A stretch of DNA of 64,000 bases from NCBI GenBank assembly GCA_965237465.1, contig OZ250138.1:1814643-1878642 (forward strand), written 5' to 3'. The notes below the pieces were generated by a model, which saw nothing but the letters and a program-made list of their open reading frames with translations, made no database searches and was not told where the DNA came from. Both the position numbers and the translations under genes were made by a program. Each line of letters starts with the position of its first letter. Position 1 is the stretch's first letter. This DNA is from Dehalococcoidia bacterium. Lineage in GTDB: Bacteria > Chloroflexota > Dehalococcoidia > UBA6926. Positions 3,104-57,425 of this stretch are shown one piece after another.

Positions 3104-4615
3104 ATGACCTGGCAATCAAACATCATCAACTTTGGTAGAGAGGGCACAGGGACCATCGCGAAGAATGTCACGGATGGCGTTGTCACGCTGGAACCGGCGT
3201 CCGCGCAGGAGCTCATCAGCGCTCTGCCGCAGACGAATAAGCCGCCGGTCGAAGAGGATTGGCCGACATCCCGCGAGCAGTGGGAAGAAGCGGCGCGCAT
3301 TGAGGCCGAAGCTGAAGCTGAGCTTGCGGATGCAGAGTCCCTTGATGACCCCGTTCGCATGTACCTCCGTGAGATTGGCCGTGTCGACCTTCTCAACGCG
3401 CGGCAGGAGAAGGAGCTTGCCCGCCGCGCGGAAGGATGGAAAGAGCTGCAGGCGCTTGAGGTCCGGCTCAGGGGAACCACTGGTCGCAGACCCAACATTG
3501 CTGATCTCTCCATCCACCTCCTCCAATGTCTGTCCACCCACGTGGAGCTCGCCAACATGCTCATCGAGCGCATGGGACTTGAAACCCCGTGCACGCTGCT
3601 GACGCTCAAGGAAGCTCCTGAGGCGGCGAAGGTCATCGACATTGAGATGCACCATGAGATGGCTCAAGAGCTGGCGGAGCAACTAGGCCGTGAGCCGGAG
3701 GATGTTGAGCGCGAAATCATTGAGATCTCCCTTGAGCGCTGGCTTCTGCCCACGCCCCTCATCGCTGCCTGTGCGCCGTCTCTCACCCTTGAGACGATTC
3801 CTCTCTATCTCGGCACTCAGGACATCCAGGAGGCAGCGAAACTGACGGATCAGGACTGCCGCGACTATCTGGACGAGATTCGAAGGCAGGGGGAGCGCGC
3901 CCAGCGCCGAATGACAGAGGCCAATCTGCGGCTCGTTGTCAGCGTCGCCAAGAAGTACATCGGGCGTGGCATGAATCTTCTGGACCTGGTGCAAGAGGGA
4001 AACATCGGACTAATCCGCGCCGTTGAGAAGTTCGATTACCGCAAGGGATTCAAGTTCTCCACGTACGCAACATGGTGGATCAGGCAGGCCATCACGCGCT
4101 CCATCGCCGATCAGGCGCGGACAATCCGCATCCCGGTCCATATGGTGGAGACCATCAACAAGCTGCTGCGTGAGAATCGACGCCTCGTGCAGGAGCTGGG
4201 TCGAGAGCCAACGACTGAGGAAATCGCTGTGCAGATGGAGATCACTCCTGAGCGAGTCCGGGAAATCCTTAAGATTTCGCAGGAGCCGGTCTCGCTTGAA
4301 ACACCCATCGGCGAGGAAGAGGACTCTCATCTCGGCGACTTTATCGAAGACAAGACGGCGCTTGCCCCGGCGGACGCCGCATCCTATCAGCTTCTGAAGG
4401 AGCAGATCGGCAGCGTGCTCGACACGCTGAGCGGACGGGAGCGGCGCGTGCTGCAGCTGCGCTTTGGGCTTGATGACGGCAGGAGTCGCACGCTTGAAGA
4501 AGTAGGGCGGGAATTCAGCGTCACCCGCGAGCGCATTCGGCAGATAGAGGCCAAGGCCCTGCGAAAGCTGCGGCATCCCACGCGCAGCCGACGCCTCCGG
4601 GATTTCCTCGCCTGA
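3104..4615 (+). CDS. rpoD: Primary RNA polymerase sigma factor (sigma-70 family)
   Basis: 503-aa ORF with region 2 ([37 protein letters not shown]), region 3, and region 4.2 ([30 protein letters not shown]). Confidence 0.95.
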
Positions 4616-9338: not shown

Positions 9339-11096
9339 ATGCCGCCCTTCCGCGTTGCCCTGGCGCAGATTAACCCCACTGTCGGCGATATTCCCGGCAA
9401 CACGCGCCGCATCATTGAGGACATTCAGCGCGCGAAGGAATACCAGGTGGATCTTGTAGCCTTCCCGGAGCTGTGCATAACCGGCTACCCGCCGGAAGAC
9501 CTCCTCTACAAGGATTCATTCCTGGATGCGGTTGGCGACGCTCTGCATGAGGTGTTCGAGGCCTCGCGCGGCATTGCGGTCGTCGTGGGGTTCCCGGAAC
9601 GCGTCGCCCTGCCGGATTGCCCGGAGCAGATCTACAACTCCGCCGCGGTCATTCACGACGGAGAGCTTGCCGACGTGTACCGCAAGATCTTTCTTCCCAA
9701 CTACAGCGTCTTTGATGAGGAACGCTACTTTGAGTCCGGCGATCGATGCCCCGTCTACCGCATCGGCGATGCGCTTATTGGAGTGAATATCTGCGAGGAC
9801 ATCTGGATCGATTCAGGGCCAACGACTGTTCAGCGCACTGCCGGCGCGCAGATCGTCATCAACATCAACGGCTCGCCGTACTACCAGGGGAAGCGCGCGG
9901 AACGGGGCGATATGCTGCGTGAGCGGGCGGCGCAGAACGGCATCTTTCTCTGCTACGTCAACATGACAGGCGGCCAGGATGAGCTTGTCTTTGACGGAGC
10001 GAGCATGATCCTTGATCCGCAGGGGGCCCTAATTGGCGCGGGCCGCCAATTTCACGAGGATCTGGTGGTCGCGGATCTCAACCTGAGCCAGGCGGACGCC
10101 ACGCCGCAGATTGCGGCCATAGATGACACAGACCCGGCCATCAGGCGATGGGCGCAGGCCGATGTCCGGGACATCTCACCGGCGCCGTCTGCGATTGGAG
10201 AGCGTCCTGCGCTCCCGGCGAGAGACATGCCCGACCCCCTCCACCCGGTTGAGGAGGCCTATCGCGCTCTCATCCTTGGCACGCGCGACTACGTGCACAA
10301 GAGCGGATTCTCCCAGGTGGTTATCGGCCTCTCCGGCGGCATTGATTCCGCGCTGACGGCGGCTGTCGCGGCGGATGCCCTCGGCCCCGAAAATGTGCTT
10401 TGCCTGGCGATGCCGTCGCGATTCACGGCGGACCGCAGCGTGACCGACGCGCGGCTGCTCGCCGAGAATCTTGGGATCGGCTTTGACGTGATCGCAATTG
10501 AGGACGTTGTCGCGGCCTATCGCGATGGACTGAATCCGCTCTTCGCGGGCACGCAGGAGGGCGTGGCGGAGGAAAATATCCAGGCGCGCGTGCGCGGCAA
10601 CCTGTTGATGGCCATCTCAAACAAGTTTGGCAAGATTGTGCTTGCCACCGGCAATAAGAGCGAGTACGCCACCGGATACGCAACGCTCTACGGCGATATG
10701 GCGGGCGGCTTCGCCGTCATCAAGGATGTGCCCAAGACACTCGTGTATCAGCTATGCAATTGGCGAAACGAGGACGCAGGTCGCGACATCATTCCACAGG
10801 CGATTATTGACCGGCCGCCGACGGCGGAGTTGCGTCCGGATCAACTCGATATGGACTCTCTCCCACCCTACGACATCCTTGACCCCGTGCTTGAGGCCTA
10901 TGTAGAGCGAGACTGCTCCCCCGCGGACATGGTGAACAAACTTGGCTTTGCCAAAGACGTTGTGAATCGCGTCGTCATGCTTGTTGACCGAAGCGAATAC
11001 AAACGCCGCCAGGCGGCACCCGGCATAAAGATCACCGAGCGCGCCTTCGGCAAAGACCGCCGCCTCCCCATAGTCAACCGCTACAAGCCGGTGTAG
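9339..11096 (+). CDS. nadE: Glutamine-dependent NAD+ synthetase (CN-hydrolase domain plus NAD synthetase domain)
   Basis: 585-aa ORF with an N-terminal nitrilase-like domain (FPEL..TGYP, NICEDIW) and a C-terminal PP-loop (GLSGGIDS). Confidence 0.95.
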   Translation: MPPFRVALAQINPTVGDIPGNTRRIIEDIQRAKEYQVDLVAFPELCITGYPPEDLLYKDSFLDAVGDALHEVFEASRGIAVVVGFPERVALPDCPEQIYNSAAVIHDGELADVYRKIFLPNYSVFDEERYFESGDRCPVYRIGDALIGVNICEDIWIDSGPTTVQRTAGAQIVININGSPYYQGKRAERGDMLRERAAQNGIFLCYVNMTGGQDELVFDGASMILDPQGALIGAGRQFHEDLVVADLNLSQADATPQIAAIDDTDPAIRRWAQADVRDISPAPSAIGERPALPARDMPDPLHPVEEAYRALILGTRDYVHKSGFSQVVIGLSGGIDSALTAAVAADALGPENVLCLAMPSRFTADRSVTDARLLAENLGIGFDVIAIEDVVAAYRDGLNPLFAGTQEGVAEENIQARVRGNLLMAISNKFGKIVLATGNKSEYATGYATLYGDMAGGFAVIKDVPKTLVYQLCNWRNEDAGRDIIPQAIIDRPPTAELRPDQLDMDSLPPYDILDPVLEAYVERDCSPADMVNKLGFAKDVVNRVVMLVDRSEYKRRQAAPGIKITERAFGKDRRLPIVNRYKPV

Positions 11097-11117
11097 GGGA
11101 AGAGACGCCTAGGCGCC

Positions 11118-11896
11118 TCAGAGCGCCTGCTCCGCATAGCGGTACAGGCGAGGGAGGGCGCCCTGCCGGAGTCTGAACTTTGTCCCGTGGTTGTGCCCTG
11201 TTCGCGCGTCGAAATCGATGTAAACATCGCCGGACTCCATCGCTGAGATGAATCCCTCTATATTGAATCCCTGCAAGGTGTAGACGGAGTAAATGCGGAA
11301 CTGTTCCGATCCCCGCTTCTTCTCCGAGTCAACCTCGACATAAACGGTGTTCAACATCTTCGATGAGACCTTAAGCTCTAAGTCCTGCAATGGCCAATAC
11401 GGTTGAGGGTCGAGCGCCCCGTGGCCCACGCGCTGTGCGACCGTCTCGAGCCAGTCAGCGTGTCGCGCTTCCACAAGACCCGCCTCGAATTGAACGGCGA
11501 TACGCTGACTGGCGCGGTCCACGATAATTCGAAAACCCCCCGGTCAGACCAATTCGTTGCGCGGATCGTTTGGCGGAAGCTCATCTCGCCCTGCCACCCT
11601 TCCGCCGGCCAACCGTAGTGAGGCAACAGAAGCCGCGGGATGATGCGGGCGGGTCGGGGATGCGGTTCGGCGTGTAAGAGCGTGATCAAGCTTGAACTGC
11701 CACGCCGGTGACTCTTGAGCTCCCATTGGGACGTATCGGCTATGGGGAGATTGTTGTCAGGGAATCCGAGGAGCTGTTCGATAGTGTTGCCGACGCCGCC
11801 CGCGCTGCGTGGCCGCACACTATCTATCCATCCTCGCGCCTTAATCTCCCGGAGGAGTTCGATCAATTGCTCGCGGCTTATCCGGCGCTGGACCAC
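11118..11896 (-). pseudogene. MvaI/BcnI-family type II restriction endonuclease, frameshifted
   Basis: Two overlapping minus-strand ORFs (11378-11896 and 11118-11522) together cover an MvaI/BcnI-like protein. The N-terminal part is SREQLIELLREIKARGW..GGVGNTIEQLLG..DNN...D...WELKS. The C-terminal part is EQFRIYSVYTL...GDVYIDFDARTGHNHGTKFRL. The frames switch inside a run of 6 C (plus strand) at 11536-11541. Confidence 0.8.
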
Positions 11897-11914
11897 CTTG
11901 CGTCCTCTGCTGTC

Positions 11915-12808
11915 CTAAAGCGGCTTGCGGAAATCCAGGATGTACTCGAACGTCGTGCCCATTGTGATGTAGTTGCGCGGCCATCCAAAGATGCCGACTC
12001 GATTAACTATGTTCGTTCTGTCCCAAATGATCGTATTGCGGAACTGATAACCGGCGCGCCGAAGAGCTTCGATGATGGAAACGTGGATCGTTATTCGCTG
12101 ATCCTCCCACCACATATCCGGCACGTTGATGACACAGTGCGCGCCTGGCCGAAGTAGCGGCAAGATATTGCAGAAGATGGCCTCCATCTCTTGCTCGTAT
12201 TCAGCGATTGCGAGAGTACCCAGATCCCGCGGGTCCTGCGAGTACTGTTCAACTTGCTGGAACTGATCGTTCTTCCGCGAGCGTCGGCTCTTGTTTAGCC
12301 TTGGCCGGTTCAGCAGATTTGCGTATGGAGGCGACGTAAATATTAGTGCCACCCGCTCATCTTGCAAGTGACGGTTAATGTCTCTCGCATCCTCCTGAAA
12401 GGCGGTCTGGTAAGGCGATTCGGCGCTGTTCATGCCAAGGCGACTCTTGCTGAGAGAGATATATTCGTCAGAAAGGTCAAAACCAAGGGCGTTTCGCCCA
12501 GTGTCTTGCGCCGCCACCAATGTCGTGCCGCTGCCCACAAATGGGTCGAGAACCAGCTCGCCAGTGTGCGTAAAGAGTTCAATAACGCGGGTGGCCAGGG
12601 AAATCGGGAATGTAGCGGGGTGGACCTTTTTATCGCGGATGTCGCGACCATTGTAGTTGAACCGCCAGACCCCCAGTTGATTCTTTAGCCATTCCTTGGC
12701 AGTCAGACAGTTAAGGTGATTTGTGGGACAGTCGCACGTGCGTTGTCCGCTGATGTCGAGGTAGCTGTCTGGTTGAACCGTCTCGGGAGCTCTGGTAACG
12801 GTCGCCAT
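11915..12808 (-). CDS. Site-specific DNA methyltransferase, probably N4-cytosine (SPPY motif)
   Basis: The internal ATG at 12808 (MATVTRAP...) is preferred. It has the SAM-binding motif VLDPFVGSGTT and the catalytic motif IFTSPPYANL. It lies 19 bp upstream (in its own orientation) of the MvaI/BcnI-like ORF, and its GC content looks lower than that of its neighbours. Confidence 0.85.
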   Translation of the reverse strand: MATVTRAPETVQPDSYLDISGQRTCDCPTNHLNCLTAKEWLKNQLGVWRFNYNGRDIRDKKVHPATFPISLATRVIELFTHTGELVLDPFVGSGTTLVAAQDTGRNALGFDLSDEYISLSKSRLGMNSAESPYQTAFQEDARDINRHLQDERVALIFTSPPYANLLNRPRLNKSRRSRKNDQFQQVEQYSQDPRDLGTLAIAEYEQEMEAIFCNILPLLRPGAHCVINVPDMWWEDQRITIHVSIIEALRRAGYQFRNTIIWDRTNIVNRVGIFGWPRNYITMGTTFEYILDFRKPL

Positions 12809-12886
12809 ATCCGTACCTACCTCTCTCTCAATTCCATCGTCAATGTAGCAGACGCAACCGCGCTGCGGCCACCCGGCGCATAGCAG

Positions 12887-12898
12887 GAACGCACGTTC
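12887..12898. promoter_or_regulatory. GAAC-N4-GTTC palindrome (weak LexA-box-like candidate) in the methyltransferase/nifS divergent intergenic region
   Basis: Sequence GAACGCACGTTC, about 80 bp upstream of the methyltransferase start. One such core match is expected by chance in a window this size. Confidence 0.25.
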
Positions 12899-13012
12899 TA
12901 TAACATACACGATACAGCATCCCGCCCGCATCCCTTTTCAACCTATAATGGGCGCGCAGCCAACCAGTTTGAGCGGGCGCGCCTTCTTGCGTACGCCTGG
13001 TGGGGCGGGAGT

Positions 13013-26079: not shown

Positions 26080-27993
26080 GTGACAGAGCGAGACCCCAAA
26101 CGAATGCAGGAACAATCATCCTCTCTTCTTCTCTGGGTCCGGCGCGCCGCAGCGATCCTTCTGGCCATGGTCTTTGTCCCGGTGCTGATTATCGCGATCG
26201 CGTTCTCAGGAGGACGATCCGCCGCCGTTGCCCCGGATTTCTGGGTCGAGCGTCTGCAGGAGGCGGATTTCTACACATTCATCCACGATCCCTTTGTGTC
26301 TTACATCCTTGATGAGGCGTTCGATGAAACTGACGAACCGCGTCTGCTGGCTCTTGAACCCTTCAAGGACGACATCGCCGAAGCCGTTCGTATTGGCATT
26401 CCGCCCAGGGATATCCAGCAAGTCACCGAAGACGCCATCTACTCAATGTGGCCGTACCTGACCGGCGAAAGCGAAAGCTTTGAGGTCAACGTCGCTCTTG
26501 CTGCCCGAACTCGCATCGCCCTGGAGAGTCTGGCCGAGAGCATTCGCACTGCGGATGGCGCCGCTTACGATGCCGCATTCGAGGACCTCGTCACACTTAT
26601 GGCGGAACAGCTTGATGAGGAGTTGGACGAGCTGCCAATAGTCGCTGATGTATCGCAGGAGGACACGGAAGCATACGTCCGGGAAATCGCGACAAGAGAG
26701 TGGTTGTTTGGTCAGATGGCCAACGCGATAGACCAGAGTGCGCCGTATGTCATCGGCGACGTGGACGAGCTGGAGATCACTATCCCCGTCAGCGAACGCG
26801 CCGAGGCCATAGACTCCGTCATGACCGACCTCCTCACCGACCCTGATCTGGTGGCCGACGTGGCGGAGCAATCGCTCACTCTCGTGTTGACCGGCTACCT
26901 GCCTGCGGACCCCATAGAGATTCCCGGATTGCCGGCCCTGACAGCCGATTCGCTGGCTACCGTCATTCTGATGTCAATGTCGCCGTCGGAAATGACCGAG
27001 ATGACGCGCATCGTCGTCGGCGACTTCGCCGACTACGCAACGGGGCAGTCGGATACGTTTGGCGGCGCCGACGCCCGCATCATCCTTGCGACTGCCCGGG
27101 ACAACGTCCCTGGCCTTATGGCGCAGCAGGCGGACGATGCGCTCGCCGGACGATTTCGTGAATTACCGGTCTGCGAATCCATGGGCATCCCGTCGGTCAC
27201 CGTCATGCCTCTGGACATGGCCCAGGCTCTGCCTGCCTGCGTAGCTGAGGGGTTAACGTATAAGCAATACAAGGCCGCCATAGGCCTGGACCTGGAACAG
27301 CTTGCCCGTGACGAAGTTGTTCCCTTGATTCCTCTCAATTTCACCATCGACGAAGGCATCATCCGATCAGAAATGGACCCGGCAATCATTGAGCGTATCG
27401 ACGAGATGCGCGGCTGGATGACGGACGGGTATTCCCTGGCGGTCCATGAAGTCTTCATGGAGGGTGTGCCGGAGGACATCGATATTCTCCGGGAGACGAT
27501 CAGGGACGGCATATTGTTCACTGAGGCGGACTTTGAGGATGCTTTCGGCGCAGATCCGGATGCGGATGTCCTGAGGTTAACAGTTTGGGCTTCCGATGCC
27601 GGACAGATCCTGGTTTGGCTGCCCTCAATCCTGTTGCTCGTCATCCTGGCGTTAGTGGGCGGTCGCGGATGGGACGGACGCCTGACGTGGGCCTCAGTGT
27701 CGCTGGGCATTGGCGCCGGGTTGGCCTGGATCGGCGCCGCCTTCCTGCTGGATCGCGTCCTTCGGCCTATCCTGACGACGGGCCTGGATGCCTGGCTGTC
27801 GGAAGGCGCGACAAATGTCGTTCAGCGCGAATTCACTCTGAGAGTCAACACATTTGCAGACGGCATCCTCTCCAGCCTGGCGGACAGCATACAGTCGCAA
27901 GCCCTCCTGATACTGCTCATAGCCGGCGTAACATTGCTCGTCGCCCGCCTCCTGGCCGCGGATTCCGTGGGCCGCCGTCCCTCCGGCCGTTGA
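26080..27993 (+). CDS. Hypothetical membrane protein
   Basis: 637-aa ORF with one N-terminal TM, a large acidic extracytoplasmic region, and a C-terminal cluster of TM segments. No family recognised. Confidence 0.55.
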   Translation: MTERDPKRMQEQSSSLLLWVRRAAAILLAMVFVPVLIIAIAFSGGRSAAVAPDFWVERLQEADFYTFIHDPFVSYILDEAFDETDEPRLLALEPFKDDIAEAVRIGIPPRDIQQVTEDAIYSMWPYLTGESESFEVNVALAARTRIALESLAESIRTADGAAYDAAFEDLVTLMAEQLDEELDELPIVADVSQEDTEAYVREIATREWLFGQMANAIDQSAPYVIGDVDELEITIPVSERAEAIDSVMTDLLTDPDLVADVAEQSLTLVLTGYLPADPIEIPGLPALTADSLATVILMSMSPSEMTEMTRIVVGDFADYATGQSDTFGGADARIILATARDNVPGLMAQQADDALAGRFRELPVCESMGIPSVTVMPLDMAQALPACVAEGLTYKQYKAAIGLDLEQLARDEVVPLIPLNFTIDEGIIRSEMDPAIIERIDEMRGWMTDGYSLAVHEVFMEGVPEDIDILRETIRDGILFTEADFEDAFGADPDADVLRLTVWASDAGQILVWLPSILLLVILALVGGRGWDGRLTWASVSLGIGAGLAWIGAAFLLDRVLRPILTTGLDAWLSEGATNVVQREFTLRVNTFADGILSSLADSIQSQALLILLIAGVTLLVARLLAADSVGRRPSGR

Positions 27994-28125
27994 TTCTCCT
28001 GGACTTTGCGGCGCGGCATCGACAGAGGCCCTCTCACGAGCATGCTAGGTCGGGCTCGTCGCGCCTCATGTAGAATCGCAGGAAGGAACGTGCCGGATTG
28101 CGTCCTGCGTCATAATTGAAGCGCT

Positions 28126-28575
28126 TTGCTAAAGACTGGCGATCAAGCCCCCGACTTTGCCGTTTCGCTCGGCTCCGGAGGGCGCTTTACGCTCTCGGAT
28201 CACAGGGACATCAACGTCGTGCTTTTCTTCTACCCGCTAGATTTCTCGCCGGGTTGAGCCGTGGAAGTGGGCGCGTTCTGCGACTCTTACGATGACCTGA
28301 GCGCCAGGAACGCAATCGTCATCGGCATCAGCCCGGGCAGCGTCGATCGGGTCAGGCGCTTTGGCAACGCCATCGGCGCCAATGTCGGCCTTGGCAGCGA
28401 TTCGGCGGGGGAGGTTCGCCGCCTCTATGACGTGCAGCGCCGGTTTGGCCTGGGAACGTCGTGTGTCACCTATGTCATTGACGGCGAAGGCGTGATCAGT
28501 GGCGTCTTTCACAATGAAATCGACATGGGCTCCCACGTCCGCAGCGCTCTGAGCACACTCCAGGAATTTTCATAG
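28126..28575 (+). CDS. Bcp-type peroxiredoxin with an in-frame TGA at the peroxidatic-Cys position (candidate selenoprotein; alternatively a pseudogene)
   Basis: The reading frame from TTG 28126 translates as (M)LKTGDQAPDF...VVLFFYPLDFSPG-[TGA 28255-28257]-AVEVGAFCDSYDDL...GISPGS...YVIDGEGVI. This aligns along its full length with Bcp/AhpC-TSA proteins, and the TGA falls exactly at the C of the Pxxx(T/S)xxC motif. Confidence 0.6.
28265..28288 (+). promoter_or_regulatory. Candidate bacterial SECIS-like hairpin downstream of the in-frame UGA
   Basis: AAGUGGGCGC-GUUCU-GCGACUCUU. The upper stem is CGC/GCG with apical loop GUUCU, starting 18 nt after the UGA. The lower stem is AAG/CUU plus one G-C pair, with internal mismatches. 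Hand-folded only. Confidence 0.3.
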
Positions 28576-28774
28576 ACCTGCGCCGCCTCCGCGATTGAGG
28601 TCCGGCTGCGGGCTGAACAATGCTGGGCCATCAATGTTCATGGACATGGCGCTCCCTCAGCGATCAGGGGACGAATCCGGGCCGGCGAAGCGTAGGCCCT
28701 AGATTCTCATGGATTTGCCGCTGTCGAGGCCTCTTCCATTTGCCGGGGTTTCCGGGCAATACAATTAGCGGCGT

Positions 28775-29951: not shown

Positions 29952-30068
29952 TTACTTCTGCGCCATCGTGGATCCGTGGCACGTGAGGTCACCGTCGCCG
30001 CCTTTGGTGACGACAACCTCAACGCCACAGGATGCACAGCCGTACCGCTTGCCCATCTGGTTCGCCAT
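29952..30068 (-). CDS. Small desulforedoxin-like paralog (CxxC...CH variant)
   Basis: 38-aa ORF absent from the ORF track: MANQMGKRYGCASCGVEVVVTKGGDGDLTCHGSTMAQK. It is preceded by GGGGAGAAAGGG and is a paralog of the downstream ORF (MGKRY.C..CG..V..TK). Confidence 0.6.
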   Translation of the reverse strand: MANQMGKRYGCASCGVEVVVTKGGDGDLTCHGSTMAQK

Positions 30069-52456: not shown

Positions 52457-54868
52457 TTAGACGAGAATCTTCGACTCGACCAATTCGCGTACGTCTGACT
52501 CCGAGTAGCCTAGCAGCTCCCGCATAACGTACTCATTGTGCTGACCGAGGCCCGGGGCGCCCATGCGGATGGCGCCAGGAGTGTCCGACAACGAGGCTCC
52601 GAATGACGCATGCCTCAATGCGCCCCACTCAGGCTCCGGGTGATTGACCGTGACGACGTACCCGCGGGCATTCAGAGCCGGGTCAAAGAACGTGTCCTCC
52701 GTGGTCTGGCACGCCGCGGCGGGCACGCCGTGGCGTTGAAGCGTAAACATGACCTGTCGCGGCGTCAGTGTGCGTGTCCAGTTGGAGAGTTCTTCGTCCA
52801 ACGCATCGCGGTTCGCCAGACGCTCCTCCGGTGTTGAGAAGCGAGCGTCCTGAGTCCATGCAGGAACCTCGCCGCGCGGGGGCGTCATGGCCCGCGCCAG
52901 CCCTTCCCATTCCTCCTGCGTGTGGCATGCGATGACGCACCATGCATCGTCTCCCAGACACAGGTAAGCATCGTGCGGGGCGGCATAGTCCCGCCGATTG
53001 CCCGCCGGCTCCTGGTTCACGCCGTTGACGTAGTAGTCCAGCAGGGGCACGCCGAGGGCATTGGCCTGGGCCTCCACTTGTGAGACCTCGATGTGCTGGC
53101 CCTGTCCGGTCCGTTGCCGGTGATAGAGGGCGGCCTGCAGCATGAAGCCGGATTGCCCTCCGACGAAGAAATCCGCGTAGTAGACTCCGCAACGCATGTC
53201 GGGCGTCGATTCCGGATGACCCCAGAGGTGCGTGACGCCTGAGGCGGTCTGAGCCTGCAAGCCGAAGAGGACGTGGGAAGCAAACGGGCCGGTGCTGCCC
53301 CAGCCCGGCATGCTCATGTAAACGATGTCAGGCTTGACGGCGCGAATGCCCTCGTAGTCCAGACCCCACCGATTTAGCGCCCCGGCCGCGTAGTTTTCAA
53401 CCACCGCGTCGCTCGTGGACGCCAGTTTGCGGACAATGGCCTGTCCGTCGGTGTGATGCAAATCCACGGTGATGCTCATCTTGTTGCGATTGAGTTCAGG
53501 ATGCATCGGCAGCAGGCCGGTGATACGCGACGCGGGGTCAAACAGGGACGACTCAATCTTGATGACTTCGGCGCCAAAGTCGGCCACCTGGCGCGTGCCG
53601 TACGGTCCCACCCAGATACGTGTTAGATCAGTGACGCGCACGCCTTCCAACGGCAGGCGTCCGTTGCCGGGGTGGGCCATGGGCGCCGAAGACGAGGCCG
53701 GAAACGGAGCAGCCACGGCCTCCGCCAGAACCTCATCAGTGTGCTGTCCGAGCGTTGGGGCAGGGCGACGCATCGCCCAGGGAGTTTCGCTCAGCCGCCC
53801 GGTTGGGCCCGGAAGCCGGTATGCGCCGACCACGGGGTGCTCAACGTCCTGGAAATAGTCGCGGAAGAGCAAATGCGGATTGTTGGCGAGGTCCGCAGGC
53901 GTGCTGACAGGCGTCGCGGGGATGCGGCGGCTCTGCGCCTCCTCAACGGCCTGGGCGACGGTCTTCGAGAGAAGGAACTCCGTCGCAATCCCATTGATGA
54001 ACTCAGCATTCTCGCTGCGGACACTCAAATCCTTGAACATCTCATCCTGGAGGACGGCGTTCTCAGTCCATTCCCCGAATGCCTTGAACTGGCTGGGCTG
54101 AATTGGCGAGAAGCCGATCCAACCGTCGCTGCACTCGAAAACGCCGGTGCCGCCTCCGGCGCCCGCGCCCGGCCGCTGAGCAATCGTGCCGTTGTAACCG
54201 TACTGGGAGACGATAAACAGGATGTTGGCGATGGCCTCCTGCATTGAGACATCGACATGTTGGCCTGCGCCGGAATGCTCCCGCGAAAACAGGGCGTTCA
54301 TGATGCCTATCGCCGCGTGCGTTCCTGTCACGGAGTATCCAAGAAACGCCGGCGACATGACTGGTTGACGCTCCGGATCACCCTGCAGCATCATCAGGCC
54401 GCCCATCGCCTCTGCGTGCAAATCCGTGCCCTTGTAGGAAGCGAACGGGCCCGTCTGCCCATACGGCGTCACCGAGCACACGATCAGCCGAGGGTTCGCA
54501 GACCGCAAAGCCTCTGATCCCAACCCGATCCCGTCCATGTAGCCGGGCGTGTTGGTTTCTATCAGGACATCGGCGGATTGGGCGAGTTGGCGGACTTGCT
54601 CCTGTCCCTCCGGCGTCGTGATGTCCACGAGCGCGCTGCGCTTGTTTGCGTGAAACGCGTGGAAGACGAGGCTACGCTCGCCGTCGACGACGCCGCCGGC
54701 GAAAGGAGGCAGTCGCCGGGCCGCGTCGCCATCCGGGCCTTCCAGCAACGTGACCGTCGCTCCAAAATCCGCCAGCAGCTTTGATGCGTACATAGACGGC
54801 ATCCCGCCCAGGTCAAGGACGCGCAGGCCATCAAGGGCGCCGGGTTTCAGTGTCGTATCCGCCGTCAT
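52457..54868 (-). CDS. Fusion of two class III (CaiB/BaiF/Frc-type) CoA-transferase modules
   Basis: 803-aa ORF. Module 1 starts LDGLRVLDLGG..YASKLLADFGATV. Module 2 starts LEGVRVTDLTRIWVGPYGTRQVADFGAEVIKIE after a short Ala/Pro/Ser linker. Confidence 0.85.
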   Translation of the reverse strand: MTADTTLKPGALDGLRVLDLGGMPSMYASKLLADFGATVTLLEGPDGDAARRLPPFAGGVVDGERSLVFHAFHANKRSALVDITTPEGQEQVRQLAQSADVLIETNTPGYMDGIGLGSEALRSANPRLIVCSVTPYGQTGPFASYKGTDLHAEAMGGLMMLQGDPERQPVMSPAFLGYSVTGTHAAIGIMNALFSREHSGAGQHVDVSMQEAIANILFIVSQYGYNGTIAQRPGAGAGGGTGVFECSDGWIGFSPIQPSQFKAFGEWTENAVLQDEMFKDLSVRSENAEFINGIATEFLLSKTVAQAVEEAQSRRIPATPVSTPADLANNPHLLFRDYFQDVEHPVVGAYRLPGPTGRLSETPWAMRRPAPTLGQHTDEVLAEAVAAPFPASSSAPMAHPGNGRLPLEGVRVTDLTRIWVGPYGTRQVADFGAEVIKIESSLFDPASRITGLLPMHPELNRNKMSITVDLHHTDGQAIVRKLASTSDAVVENYAAGALNRWGLDYEGIRAVKPDIVYMSMPGWGSTGPFASHVLFGLQAQTASGVTHLWGHPESTPDMRCGVYYADFFVGGQSGFMLQAALYHRQRTGQGQHIEVSQVEAQANALGVPLLDYYVNGVNQEPAGNRRDYAAPHDAYLCLGDDAWCVIACHTQEEWEGLARAMTPPRGEVPAWTQDARFSTPEERLANRDALDEELSNWTRTLTPRQVMFTLQRHGVPAAACQTTEDTFFDPALNARGYVVTVNHPEPEWGALRHASFGASLSDTPGAIRMGAPGLGQHNEYVMRELLGYSESDVRELVESKILV

Positions 54869-54918
54869 TCCATTCCTCCCGCCGACTAGTCCGACATCGG
54901 GCCCACAGGCCCATGCTC

Positions 54919-57315
54919 TTACGCCAGCGCTCCCTCACGATGCAGCGCCTCAACCTCTGAGTCTGTCAGGCCCAGAATGTCCCGGAGGACCAGATCATTG
55001 TGCTGACCGAGGGCCGCGGACGGCATTCGAGAGCCTCCAGGGGTTTCTGACAGGCGCACGGTGACGCCCGGCTGCTCCAGGACTCCCCAGTCCGGATGGT
55101 CGAGGGTATGAATGTAGCCGCGCTCCCGCAGCTGGGGGTCCCAATAGAGACCCTCGCCGGTCAAGACGGCCGTCGCGGCCACTCCTGAGCGCTGCAGCAG
55201 GTGCATTATCTGGCGCGGCGTTTGCGTTCGCGTCCACTCGGACAGAGACCCATTGAGTGCCGACTCGTTCTCCTTGCGCCCGGCCTGTGTGGCATACGCT
55301 GGTTCGAGCGCCCACGCGGGACTGCCGATGGCCTCGACGAGGGCTTGCCATTCCGCGTCGCTCGAGCACGATATGGCGCACCACGCATCGTGTCCGCGAG
55401 CAGGAAAGATTCCGTGGGGAGCATGTACAAGATGGCTGTTTCCAGCCGGCTCGCCGGGCCGGCCGTTGATGGAGTAGTCCAGAAAGGCCAGTCCCATTGT
55501 GTTGCCGACGGCTTCCACCTGCGCCACCTCGACGTGCTGGCCCCGCCCCGTCTGCGCCTTGTGATAGATGGCAGCGAGCGTGCCGAGGGCAGTGAGGCTG
55601 GCGACAAGGAAATCGGGATAATCAAACTTGCATCGCGCGTTGGGCTCCGATTCCGGATGCCCCCACGTGTAGCTGAGGCCGGACGCGGAGACGAGATTGA
55701 ATCCGAATGCCACGTGATCGCGCATTGGACCCTCGCTCCCCCACCCGGGCATGGAGACCTGGATGATGTCCGGATTCACCTTTATGAGCTCTTCGTAGCC
55801 GAGTCCGAATCTGTCGATGACGCCAAGCGCAAAGTTGTCGATAACGACATCCGACACGGCAGCGAGGCGCCGGGCGATGTCTCGCGCCTCATCCTTGTGC
55901 AGATCCAGGGTGATCCCCAGCTTGTTCCGATTGAGGTCTGCGACGTAGGGCATGGTTCCCACTCGGTTGCCGGTGTCGAAGAGCGAGGATTCGACCTTGA
56001 TGACCTCCGCGCCGTAGTCGCCCAGGAGTCGTGTACAGTACGGACCGGCCCAAACGCGGGTAAAGTCCAGAACCCGGATGCCTGCGAGCGGCAGTGTGGG
56101 GGAGACGTCATCCGAACTGCGTCCGTTGTCTGCTGCGCCCGCGGGCGCAGGCTGTCTCGTCGCCTCATCTGCGTGCTCGTTAAGAAGCGGCGCGCAGCGC
56201 GGCGGCGCGATCGGCGTCTCCGCCATTCGGAATGGGGCGCCGGGCAGCGCATGAGGGCCGATCTCAGGGTGATCGACAGTCGTGAAATAGCCTCGTTCCG
56301 CAAACTGCGGATTGTCGGCGAAATCGCCGGGCCGGTTGACCGGGGCGGCGGGCAGCCGCCGCGCCTGCGCCTCGCGCACGAATTCGTCGACGGTGAACTG
56401 TTCGATGAAGGGCGCAACGAGGGAATCGATGAACTGCATGTTCTCGTCCTGCCGGGCATCGATGGGGAGCCAGAACTCATCCTGCAACGCCGGTTCGCCG
56501 ACCCAATCAAAGAAGGCCTTGGCTTGCGGGGGAAAGAGCACGGCCAGGCTGACCCAGCCGTCCTTGCAGCGGAAGATGTTGTACGGCGCCAGGTTGCCGC
56601 TCGCCCCGATGCGTTCGCCGATCTCTGACGTGGCGGAGTAGCGAATGATCTGGAAGAAGATATTGGCGAGGACTTCCTGGATGGATACTTCAACGTGCTG
56701 TCCCCGGCCTGACCTCCGCCTGGCCATCAGCGCATAGAAGACGCCGTGCGCGGCGTGCAGGCATGCAAGGACGTAGGCCTGATCCAATGGCGCTGCCGCA
56801 GGAGGCTGTTCATTGTCCCCCTGTATGGTCATCAGGCCGCTCATGGCGATGGTCTGGAGATCGCCCCCTCGGTAACTGCCATACGGACCGGATTCACCAA
56901 AGGGCGTGATGGAGAGTGTGATCAGTTTGGGATTCGCGGCGCGTAGCTCGGAATCAGAGAGGCCAATCGACGCGAGATAGCCGGGCTCATAGCTGTCCAG
57001 AACCACATCGGCGGCGCGCGCCATCTCCAATAGATTTTGACGGCCCTCAGTCGTGGCGAGATCAATGACGACGCTTGTCTTATTGGCGTTATACGCAAGC
57101 CAACGGAGACTGCGGTCCGGTCCGGGCTGATCGCCCGCGAAAGGAGGCATGAATCGGACGGGATCGCCGCCCGGCGGCTCGATCTTGATCACATCCGCGC
57201 CCAGGTCGGCCAGCAGACGCCCGGCGTATTGGCCGGCCAGGCCGCTGAGGTCCAGGACGCTTATGCCTGTCAAGACGCCCTGAGTACGGCCCTCACGATC
57301 TGTCGAGTTTGTCAT
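54919..57315 (-). CDS. Fusion of two class III CoA-transferase modules (paralog of the downstream gene)
   Basis: About 799 aa from the ATG at 57315. Module 1 is LTGISVLDLSGLAGQYAGRLLADLGADVIKIEPPGGD. Module 2 is LAGIRVLDFTRVWAGPYCTRLLGDYGAEVIKVE. Confidence 0.85.
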   Translation of the reverse strand: MTNSTDREGRTQGVLTGISVLDLSGLAGQYAGRLLADLGADVIKIEPPGGDPVRFMPPFAGDQPGPDRSLRWLAYNANKTSVVIDLATTEGRQNLLEMARAADVVLDSYEPGYLASIGLSDSELRAANPKLITLSITPFGESGPYGSYRGGDLQTIAMSGLMTIQGDNEQPPAAAPLDQAYVLACLHAAHGVFYALMARRRSGRGQHVEVSIQEVLANIFFQIIRYSATSEIGERIGASGNLAPYNIFRCKDGWVSLAVLFPPQAKAFFDWVGEPALQDEFWLPIDARQDENMQFIDSLVAPFIEQFTVDEFVREAQARRLPAAPVNRPGDFADNPQFAERGYFTTVDHPEIGPHALPGAPFRMAETPIAPPRCAPLLNEHADEATRQPAPAGAADNGRSSDDVSPTLPLAGIRVLDFTRVWAGPYCTRLLGDYGAEVIKVESSLFDTGNRVGTMPYVADLNRNKLGITLDLHKDEARDIARRLAAVSDVVIDNFALGVIDRFGLGYEELIKVNPDIIQVSMPGWGSEGPMRDHVAFGFNLVSASGLSYTWGHPESEPNARCKFDYPDFLVASLTALGTLAAIYHKAQTGRGQHVEVAQVEAVGNTMGLAFLDYSINGRPGEPAGNSHLVHAPHGIFPARGHDAWCAISCSSDAEWQALVEAIGSPAWALEPAYATQAGRKENESALNGSLSEWTRTQTPRQIMHLLQRSGVAATAVLTGEGLYWDPQLRERGYIHTLDHPDWGVLEQPGVTVRLSETPGGSRMPSAALGQHNDLVLRDILGLTDSEVEALHREGALA

Positions 57316-57425
57316 CGCGTCCCCTGCGCCCGGTGGGCATTGTCTGAAGGATGATCCGGCTCGCGCCACGGCAAATGAGGCCATGCGGTCGGACACTCGC
57401 AAGCGTAGCAGGATGAGCTAGGCCG

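Follow-up and report, generated by a model that had tools for sequence, protein, structure and literature searches.

A BCP-type peroxiredoxin gene from a Dehalococcoidia bacterium with an in-frame UGA, probably a selenocysteine codon, at the peroxidatic position

When a TGA codon stands exactly where a peroxiredoxin gene is expected to encode its peroxidatic cysteine, is it read as selenocysteine (Sec) or is the gene dead? The question is raised by a locus in the 64,000-nucleotide stretch of Dehalococcoidia DNA analysed here (referred to as the window), in which a 149-codon frame on the forward strand (28126-28575) runs to its terminal TAG at 28573-28575 with a single internal stop, TGA at 28255-28257. 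We favour the first answer, and put the probability at about 0.8 that the locus encodes a genuine peroxiredoxin of the BCP/PrxQ type, with UGA-44 read as the peroxidatic Sec of a PxxxSxxU motif.

The reading frame and its genomic setting

Translation of 28126-28575 gives (M)LKTGDQAPDF...FYPLDFSPG*AVEVGAFCDS...LQEFS*, in which the first asterisk is the internal TGA. The features that define the gene are the following.

28126..28575, + strand: putative complete selenoprotein ORF of a BCP-type peroxiredoxin; it starts with TTG, ends with TAG and has UGA as codon 44 of 149
28234..28257, + strand: active-site motif P37-L-D-F-S41-P-G-U44 (PxxxS/TxxU), from the family alignment
28255..28257, + strand: in-frame UGA, putative selenocysteine codon at the peroxidatic position, with TGA at the same codon in orthologues and in other clades; the residues flanking codon 44 are ...FSPG-U-AVEVGAFCDSYDDLSAR

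With the stop replaced by Cys, the window protein matches the Pfam family AhpC-TSA (PF00578) over residues 5-125 with an E value of 6.6e-26 (91.1 bits, against a cut-off of 26), and the match covers positions 2-122 of the 124 in the profile. The best match in the PDB is Bcp1 from S. solfataricus (PDB code 3DRN; E = 1.2e-20), and in this alignment the stop falls on the peroxidatic residue of the DTPG-C/S-T segment. The first-pass annotation of this DNA had proposed a full-length Bcp-type frame starting at TTG 28126; the near end-to-end match to AhpC-TSA, with the N-terminus in register with Bcp, is what such a frame predicts. Its placing of the TGA exactly at the peroxidatic cysteine of the PxxxT/SxxC motif is borne out by an alignment of 104 family sequences, in which column 44 holds 89 Cys and 15 TGA, position 37 is Pro in 99/104 and position 41 is T or S in 104/104.

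The best NCBIfam match of the window protein is also Bcp. The equivalog model for E. coli Bcp (NF006960) scores 62.2 bits, below its cut-off of 140, and the model for PrxU (NF040737, peroxi_PrxU) scores 42.6 bits, below its cut-off of 270. Judged by these scores and by the alignment, the protein appears to be BCP-like, yet to belong to a separate subfamily with the signature RRLYDVxRRFGLGTSRVTYVID...FHNE. Scanning the genome collection with the window protein returned distant Cys-form peroxiredoxins only, at 25-36% identity.

The window as a whole is housekeeping chromosome and carries dnaG, rpoD, nadE, dnaX, recR, recO, lexA, the pyruvate kinase gene, greA, lysS, metG and glmS. At the locus the gene order is recO, a gene for a 166-aa protein, a 4HBT thioesterase gene, a gene for a 629-aa protein, prx and lexA. 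Of the 61 ORFs in the window, about 24 have TGA as their ordinary stop, which shows a standard genetic code without reassignment. This count speaks directly against a reading in which UGA is a sense codon (code 4 or 25). The public gene calls would suggest another way around a selenoprotein, as they report a product of 102 aa with the N-terminus MGAF... (P0027, P0076 and P0078), which would make the true product a C-terminal piece of 102-104 aa initiated at GTG 28261/28267. Such a piece is without β1-β3 and the active site and is not a peroxiredoxin, and the 43 codons upstream of the TGA are conserved across clades. Neither the sense codon nor the C-terminal fragment seems to us a credible account of the locus.

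A search of the window for a second selenoprotein gene, in the form of TGA-joined ORF pairs with high GC3, gave the peroxiredoxin and otherwise only antisense or out-of-frame noise. Split calls further downstream that resemble desulfoferrodoxin were tried as a second TGA gene and rejected; they are two separate small desulforedoxin-like ORFs.

Conservation of the TGA and selection on the frame

A protein search returned about 75 full-length homologues of 149 aa, with 52-72% identity and Cys at the column in all, together with 102-106-aa `proteins' that start just past the codon-44 column. Gene callers routinely split selenoprotein genes in two. The DNA behind the truncated calls contains five loci that are syntenic with the window, each with TGA at codon 44 and with the frame otherwise open. 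Their products are 75-97% identical in amino-acid sequence to that of the window: L041, L043 and L042 exceed 90%, L011 has 82% and L012 has 75%. The frame is exactly 450 nt in 6/6 copies of this clade, all of which lie between the gene for the 629-aa protein and lexA, and the spacers that flank it vary from 66 to 133 nt upstream and from 204 to 299 nt downstream.

TGA at this codon extends beyond the window clade. Two loci from NCBI Chloroflexi MAGs (L013 and L014; ∼47% amino-acid identity) have TGA at the same codon and are annotated as two fragments; the N-terminal segment is ∼60% identical to these Chloroflexi TGA forms, compared with ∼47% overall (a hand count on two translated sequences). 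A metagenome scan found TGA at codon 44 within an intact frame in L017, L023, L024, L025, L026, L027/L028, L033 and L037, and also gave many Cys forms. Alignment of the closest homologues at this column had been proposed as a check in the first-pass annotation, and the outcome favours Sec: TGA is present in 5/5 syntenic orthologues and in nine further, more distant homologues that represent at least four clades besides that of the window, all with intact frames, next to the 89 Cys forms. A neighbour-joining tree, drawn without support values, divides the TGA forms among at least five groups and places the window clade inside a set of Cys forms. From a Cys codon (TGY) a single mutation can give no stop other than TGA, and the observation that the stop is always TGA, and never TAA or TAG, for this reason carries no weight alone. 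The alignment as a whole shows a classic Sec/Cys pair, with an in-frame UGA aligned to a conserved redox cysteine and conserved flanks on both sides.

The main competing explanation is a pseudogene, either because an ancestral TGY to TGA nonsense mutation killed a Cys-peroxiredoxin, leaving six decaying copies, or because a selenoprotein gene was stranded after loss of the Sec machinery. The TGA is common to the six clade members, and by parsimony all of the divergence within the clade arose on TGA-bearing genes. Between the window and L012 there are 41 synonymous and 40 non-synonymous changes, compared with a neutral expectation of 1:3 (dN/dS = 0.26; binomial P = 6.5e-7); between L011 and L012 dN/dS is 0.22 (binomial P = 3e-8). 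Over the 43 codons 5' of the TGA the window and L012 differ at 17 of 126 nt; the dS values of the neighbouring genes are 0.43-0.84, and the segment upstream of the stop has diverged at a rate ∼3-5 times below that of neighbouring synonymous sites. There are no indels in the 450-nt frame in the six copies, whereas the spacers on either side vary in length by as much as 95 nt. Read from these substitutions and lengths, the comparison shows purifying selection on the whole frame, with head, UGA and tail as one coding unit, during the time that it carried the TGA. Conservation of the three parts as a unit is predicted by a selenoprotein gene and not by a pseudogene. The claim of the first-pass annotation that the TGA is not just a nonsense mutation accordingly holds up, with dN/dS of 0.22-0.26 over the deepest split (P of about 1e-7), no indels and a conserved TGA.

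Other features of the same data lean towards decay. In three of four comparisons none of the other genes among the 12 local ones has a dN/dS as high as that of prx (0.22-0.58), most housekeeping neighbours having values of 0.03-0.19 and the unannotated gene for the 629-aa protein 0.21-0.31; the exception is the window compared with L011, in which lexA has a dN/dS of 0.27 on only 15 changes. Neutrality is not rejected for close pairs (window and L011, P = 0.075). By simulation, a neutrally evolving frame would stay free of a further stop with a probability of 22%, which makes the lack of a second stop weak evidence alone. Three of the copies carry a unique change at a near-invariant residue: R113C, at the catalytic arginine, in the window, P37L in L011 and F107A in L012. 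Set against the selection over the deepest split, the frame lengths, the slow divergence ahead of the stop and the recurrence of the same TGA in at least four other clades, these points leave a pseudogene unlikely in our judgement, and a gene that is translated through UGA as a selenoprotein is the reading that we carry forward.

The five syntenic loci also bear on an element upstream of the start codon.

28090..28119, + strand: mini-ORF VPDCVLRHN*, 9 codons, present in the window and probably a non-functional element

Translational coupling of this mini-ORF to prx had been suggested in the first-pass annotation. The 9-codon ORF is indeed there; coupling is rejected because the mini-ORF is not conserved. 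A 1-nt indel shifts its frame in L041, L042 and L043, there is no start codon in L011, and in L012 it is replaced. Near the start codon of prx, conservation is limited to CATAATTGA directly 5' of the start. A promoter scan found nothing in this region.

Candidate SECIS hairpins and the selenocysteine machinery

The published model of the bacterial SECIS element (bSECIS; PMC13188914, Fig. [quoted passage not shown] According to BSepDB, 12.6% of curated bacterial selenoprotein genes are without a canonical SECIS (PMC13326102). Three structures at or past the UGA were considered.

28256..28286, + strand: best-supported candidate SECIS hairpin of the window clade, a stem of 12 pairs with a bulged G, capped by a GGCG loop; it takes in the GA of the UGA
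28269..28285, + strand: hairpin folded by hand in the first-pass annotation, with a CGC/GCG stem and a GUUCU loop, here lengthened by G-C and G-U pairs, and 100% paired throughout the clade
28291-28296 / 28318-28323, + strand: second stem, GAUGAC/GUCAUC, present in the sequence

The first hairpin is the minimum-energy fold, at -10.8 kcal/mol, and is 100% paired in all four distinct clade sequences, with five one-sided changes between GC and GU and no broken pair. Its energy, loop and stem agree with the bSECIS model, but its loop starts 12 nt after the UGA, below the range of 16-37. The second hairpin has a suitable spacing (17 nt) and a loop with G first, but its upper stem of 3 bp and energy of -6.8 kcal/mol fall short of the model. 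Compared with dinucleotide shuffles, the fold of the window is not significant over 36 nt (-10.8 kcal/mol, z = -0.67) or over 62 nt (-21 kcal/mol, z = -1.2). There are no compensatory double changes in the stems of the window clade, in which the variation is between GC and GU only. Of the structures proposed earlier, the CGC/GCG stem with its GUUCU loop is present at a spacing that is in range, but it folds no better than chance and so cannot be used as independent evidence; the second stem is likewise present. The hairpins of the window clade are best regarded as plausible candidates for its SECIS element.

Most of the TGA forms outside the window clade have a clean hairpin with a G-containing apical loop that starts 16-24 nt after the UGA. 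Hairpins that fit the bSECIS model are found in L017 (GGGAGUU-UGUA-AACUUCC), in L026 (GGGAGUU-UGGA-AACUCCC; z = -2.7), in L023 and L024 (CGCGG-AGUU-CCGCG) and in L037 (GGGCUUC-GUC-GAAGCCC; z = -2.3). The hairpin CGCGG-AGUU-CCGCG also occurs in L013 and L014 (z = -2.1 for L013), where the energy of the bare hairpin, -7.4 kcal/mol, is borderline. RNAalifold found no common structure among 13 Sec forms of all clades, the hairpins being in different registers. The mean fold energy after the codon is -13.6 kcal/mol for the Sec forms and -10.1 kcal/mol for the Cys forms, and does not discriminate between them because GC-rich Cys forms fold too. Rfam gave no match for the whole window at the gathering threshold and chance matches only in a permissive scan of 28050-28650; both results say little with regard to a bacterial SECIS.

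As the first-pass annotation had cautioned, there is no selA, selB, selD or tRNA-Sec within the 64-kb window. ARAGORN found no tRNA-Sec in the window or in 24 loci, and no tRNA gene of any kind in the window. We used the SelA of L015 as a query for the SelA of the window lineage; among the 120 best matches and the listed members of 20 clusters (∼64% identity or more), none lies on the contigs of this lineage, which are 1,987,973, 1,942,944, 1,928,147 and 1,503,894 bp in length; a negative of this scope is not evidence that the lineage lacks SelA. A tblastn search of SelA against all of the loci collected gave L015 only. In the sister lineages the genomes with the Cys form do carry selA, on a contig shared with the Cys-form gene in 3/3 cases examined (contigs of 2,532,545, 2,296,122 and 174,100 bp). 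The two genes are divergent neighbours in L015 and L044, and P0061 and P0253 are encoded on one contig, that of 174,100 bp. In BSepDB, the ten bacteria with the most selenoprotein genes include two Dehalococcoidia genomes, with 49 and 46 such genes (PMC13326102).

That no Sec machinery of the lineage was found in the window or among the SelA matches listed, and that the hairpins of the window clade are not significant, counts on the side of the pseudogene. A different way to dispense with the machinery would be for UGA-44 to be decoded non-canonically, for example by a suppressor tRNA that inserts Cys or another residue. We think this very improbable; in a milder variant, the window protein with U44, C52 and C113 would work without the catalytic Arg. 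If instead UGA-44 is decoded as Sec, as we prefer, this small-genome (roughly 2-Mb) lineage of the Dehalococcoidia would be marked as a probable selenium user.

Relation to known peroxiredoxins and the catalytic residues

Peroxiredoxins with TxxU or PxxxTxxU are an established family of bacterial selenoproteins (PMC1794560, PMC13188914); the first-pass annotation had referred to Prx-like selenoproteins reported from metagenomic surveys. PrxU of Eubacterium acidaminophilum is an experimentally verified example (Sohling et al., 2001, as cited in PMC13188914), and several independent switches from Cys to Sec have been inferred for Prx (PMC1794560, Table 1). The window protein resembles PrxU in its AhpC/TSA fold (PF00578), in having the putative Sec at the peroxidatic position of PxxxT/SxxU and in the occurrence of Sec/Cys pairs with repeated switches between Cys and Sec. 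It is not an orthologue of PrxU, however: it has 149 aa, compared with the 233 positions of the PrxU model, and it belongs to the BCP/PrxQ-like branch, with Ser rather than Thr at position -3. With the BCP/PrxQ proteins (E. coli Bcp; 3DRN) it shares a length of ∼150 aa, the lack of a C-terminal extension, and an N-terminus and PxxxTxxC motif that are in register, but it would have Sec for the peroxidatic Cys, and its second Cys is at +8 (FCD, for the Arg of FRD) and not at +5. The Cys forms of the sister lineages (for example P0001, P0003 and P0023; L015 and L044) are 60-72% identical, have 149 aa and share the subfamily signature and Cys52, but they have TGY and not TGA at codon 44 and occupy another genomic position.

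In public gene calls the gene is broken into an unannotated head of 43 codons and a `redoxin domain-containing protein' of 102-106 aa, also in NCBI records of Chloroflexi MAGs. Recognizing it as one gene would restore a complete antioxidant enzyme and would extend the peroxiredoxin selenoproteins by a BCP-like branch in which Sec/Cys switches are many. The understanding of Sec decoding and of peroxiredoxins is unchanged by it, as this kind of selenoprotein is already known.

Two further residues are relevant to the chemistry.

28279..28281, + strand: Cys52 (+8 from Sec), candidate resolving cysteine; Cys in 63/104 family members
28462..28464, + strand: codon 113, TGT (Cys) in place of the catalytic Arg; Arg in the other 103/104 family sequences and Cys in the window only

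As to what decodes the UGA, which hairpin is the SECIS element and how the enzyme works, we infer from the established biochemistry of peroxiredoxins and of Sec insertion. By this analogy, an mRNA hairpin at or just past the UGA would recruit SelB and Sec-tRNA(Sec), and Sec would be inserted. The selenolate would attack a hydroperoxide and become a selenenic acid, Cys52, on the same helix, would condense with the selenenic acid to form an intramolecular selenenylsulfide, and a thioredoxin-type reductant would regenerate the enzyme.

A resolving role for the Cys eight residues downstream (in AFCD) had been put forward in the first-pass annotation; the residue is present, but the role stays that of a candidate. 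Cys52 is confined to the crown group of the Dehalococcoidia, to which all 63 of the 104 sequences with it belong. L011 has its second Cys at +11 and no longer at +8, C52R occurring together with Y55C (FRDSC compared with FCDSY), a shift that hints at maintenance of a resolving Cys. Most of the other Sec forms are without a second Cys and, judged by this, would be 1-Sec enzymes.

The catalytic Arg is essential in peroxiredoxins. Codon 113 is CGC in the five clade relatives and aligns to the Arg of ...RITFVID in 3DRN, so that the RxTF/YxID motif with its catalytic Arg is found in the clade but not in the window allele. CGC and TGT differ at two positions, which makes a single base-calling error an unlikely source of the change, and the four closest relatives (P0121-P0124; >90% identical) keep Arg113. 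With Cys in its place, the peroxidase activity of the window allele may be impaired or altered.

One could accept the family and the clade as genuine selenoproteins and still regard the window allele as dead or drifting through R113C. The confinement of the Cys to one of the 104 sequences, the retention of Arg in the closest relatives and the two-position codon change all point this way, as do dN/dS values of 0.52 against L041 and 0.76 against L043, although the latter come from tiny counts (5-8 changes). The frame of the window allele is otherwise intact, the substitution is seen in one genome record only, and at neutral pH a selenolate has already lost its proton, so that part of the role of the Arg could be dispensable. 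A dead window allele is possible, but we are inclined to doubt it, and we retain a functional selenoprotein as the preferred reading for the window as well as for its clade. The Arg113Cys allele is a natural experiment on whether a selenolate peroxiredoxin still needs its catalytic arginine. The substitution had been overlooked in the first-pass annotation.

The split gene of the probable Sec-peroxiredoxin, and codon 113

In the NCBI records of two Chloroflexi MAGs, the UGA-containing peroxiredoxin is entered as two genes (L013, 2231–2686, and L014, 9866–10321; GCA_009838595.1 and GCA_009840355.1). The split point is the UGA itself, leaving a head of 43 or 56 aa and a remaining piece of 106 aa, which is named ‘redoxin domain-containing protein’. 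In the window gene (prx), codon 113 (28462–28464), the catalytic Arg position, is TGT and encodes Cys. Arg is found here in 103 of the 104 family members examined, the window being the sole exception; the change is confined to the window's strain and amounts to two nucleotide differences (CGC versus TGT).

Cys-form homologues and selA

In sister lineages, Cys-form prx homologues are found beside selA (selenocysteine synthase):

L015, 1828–3192 (−) and 3362–3811 (+): selA and the homologue, divergent neighbours
L044, 9264–9713 (−) and 10001–11365 (+): the homologue and selA, also divergent neighbours

A third pair, the proteins P0061 and P0253, is encoded on one 174,100-bp contig. These arrangements suggest a tie between the prx subfamily and selenium metabolism, or may reflect mere lineage synteny.

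Leader and neighbourhood of prx

The sole leader element kept in all six clade members is CATAATTGA (28108–28116), which lies 9 nt upstream of the TTG/GTG start of prx. No Shine–Dalgarno sequence is obvious in it; it may serve as a ribosome-loading signal or represent a −10-like box. The following genes lie around prx:

26080–27993 (+): immediately 5′, a conserved protein of 629–637 aa
29755–29898 (−) and 29952–30068 (−): shortly 3′ of lexA, tandem ORFs of 47 and 38 aa

The upstream protein has no Pfam or NCBIfam match and evolves fairly fast (dN/dS 0.21–0.31). The small ORFs carry desulforedoxin-like CxxC...CC/C motifs and are retained in three syntenic orthologue loci (L041, L043 and L011); their interpretation as one TGA-split gene was rejected.

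Other genes of the window

11378–12931 (−): restriction–modification pair
52457–57402 (−): tandem pair of proteins of ∼800 aa

The restriction–modification pair is apparently degraded: the ORF of the MvaI/BcnI endonuclease spans no more than positions 1–109 of its 227-position profile, and the match of the adjoining N4/N6 methylase ORF is limited to the last third of the methylase domain. Each of the tandem proteins has two family-III CoA-transferase domains (E ≃ 1e-189 and 1e-197); they are an unusual, duplicated fusion.
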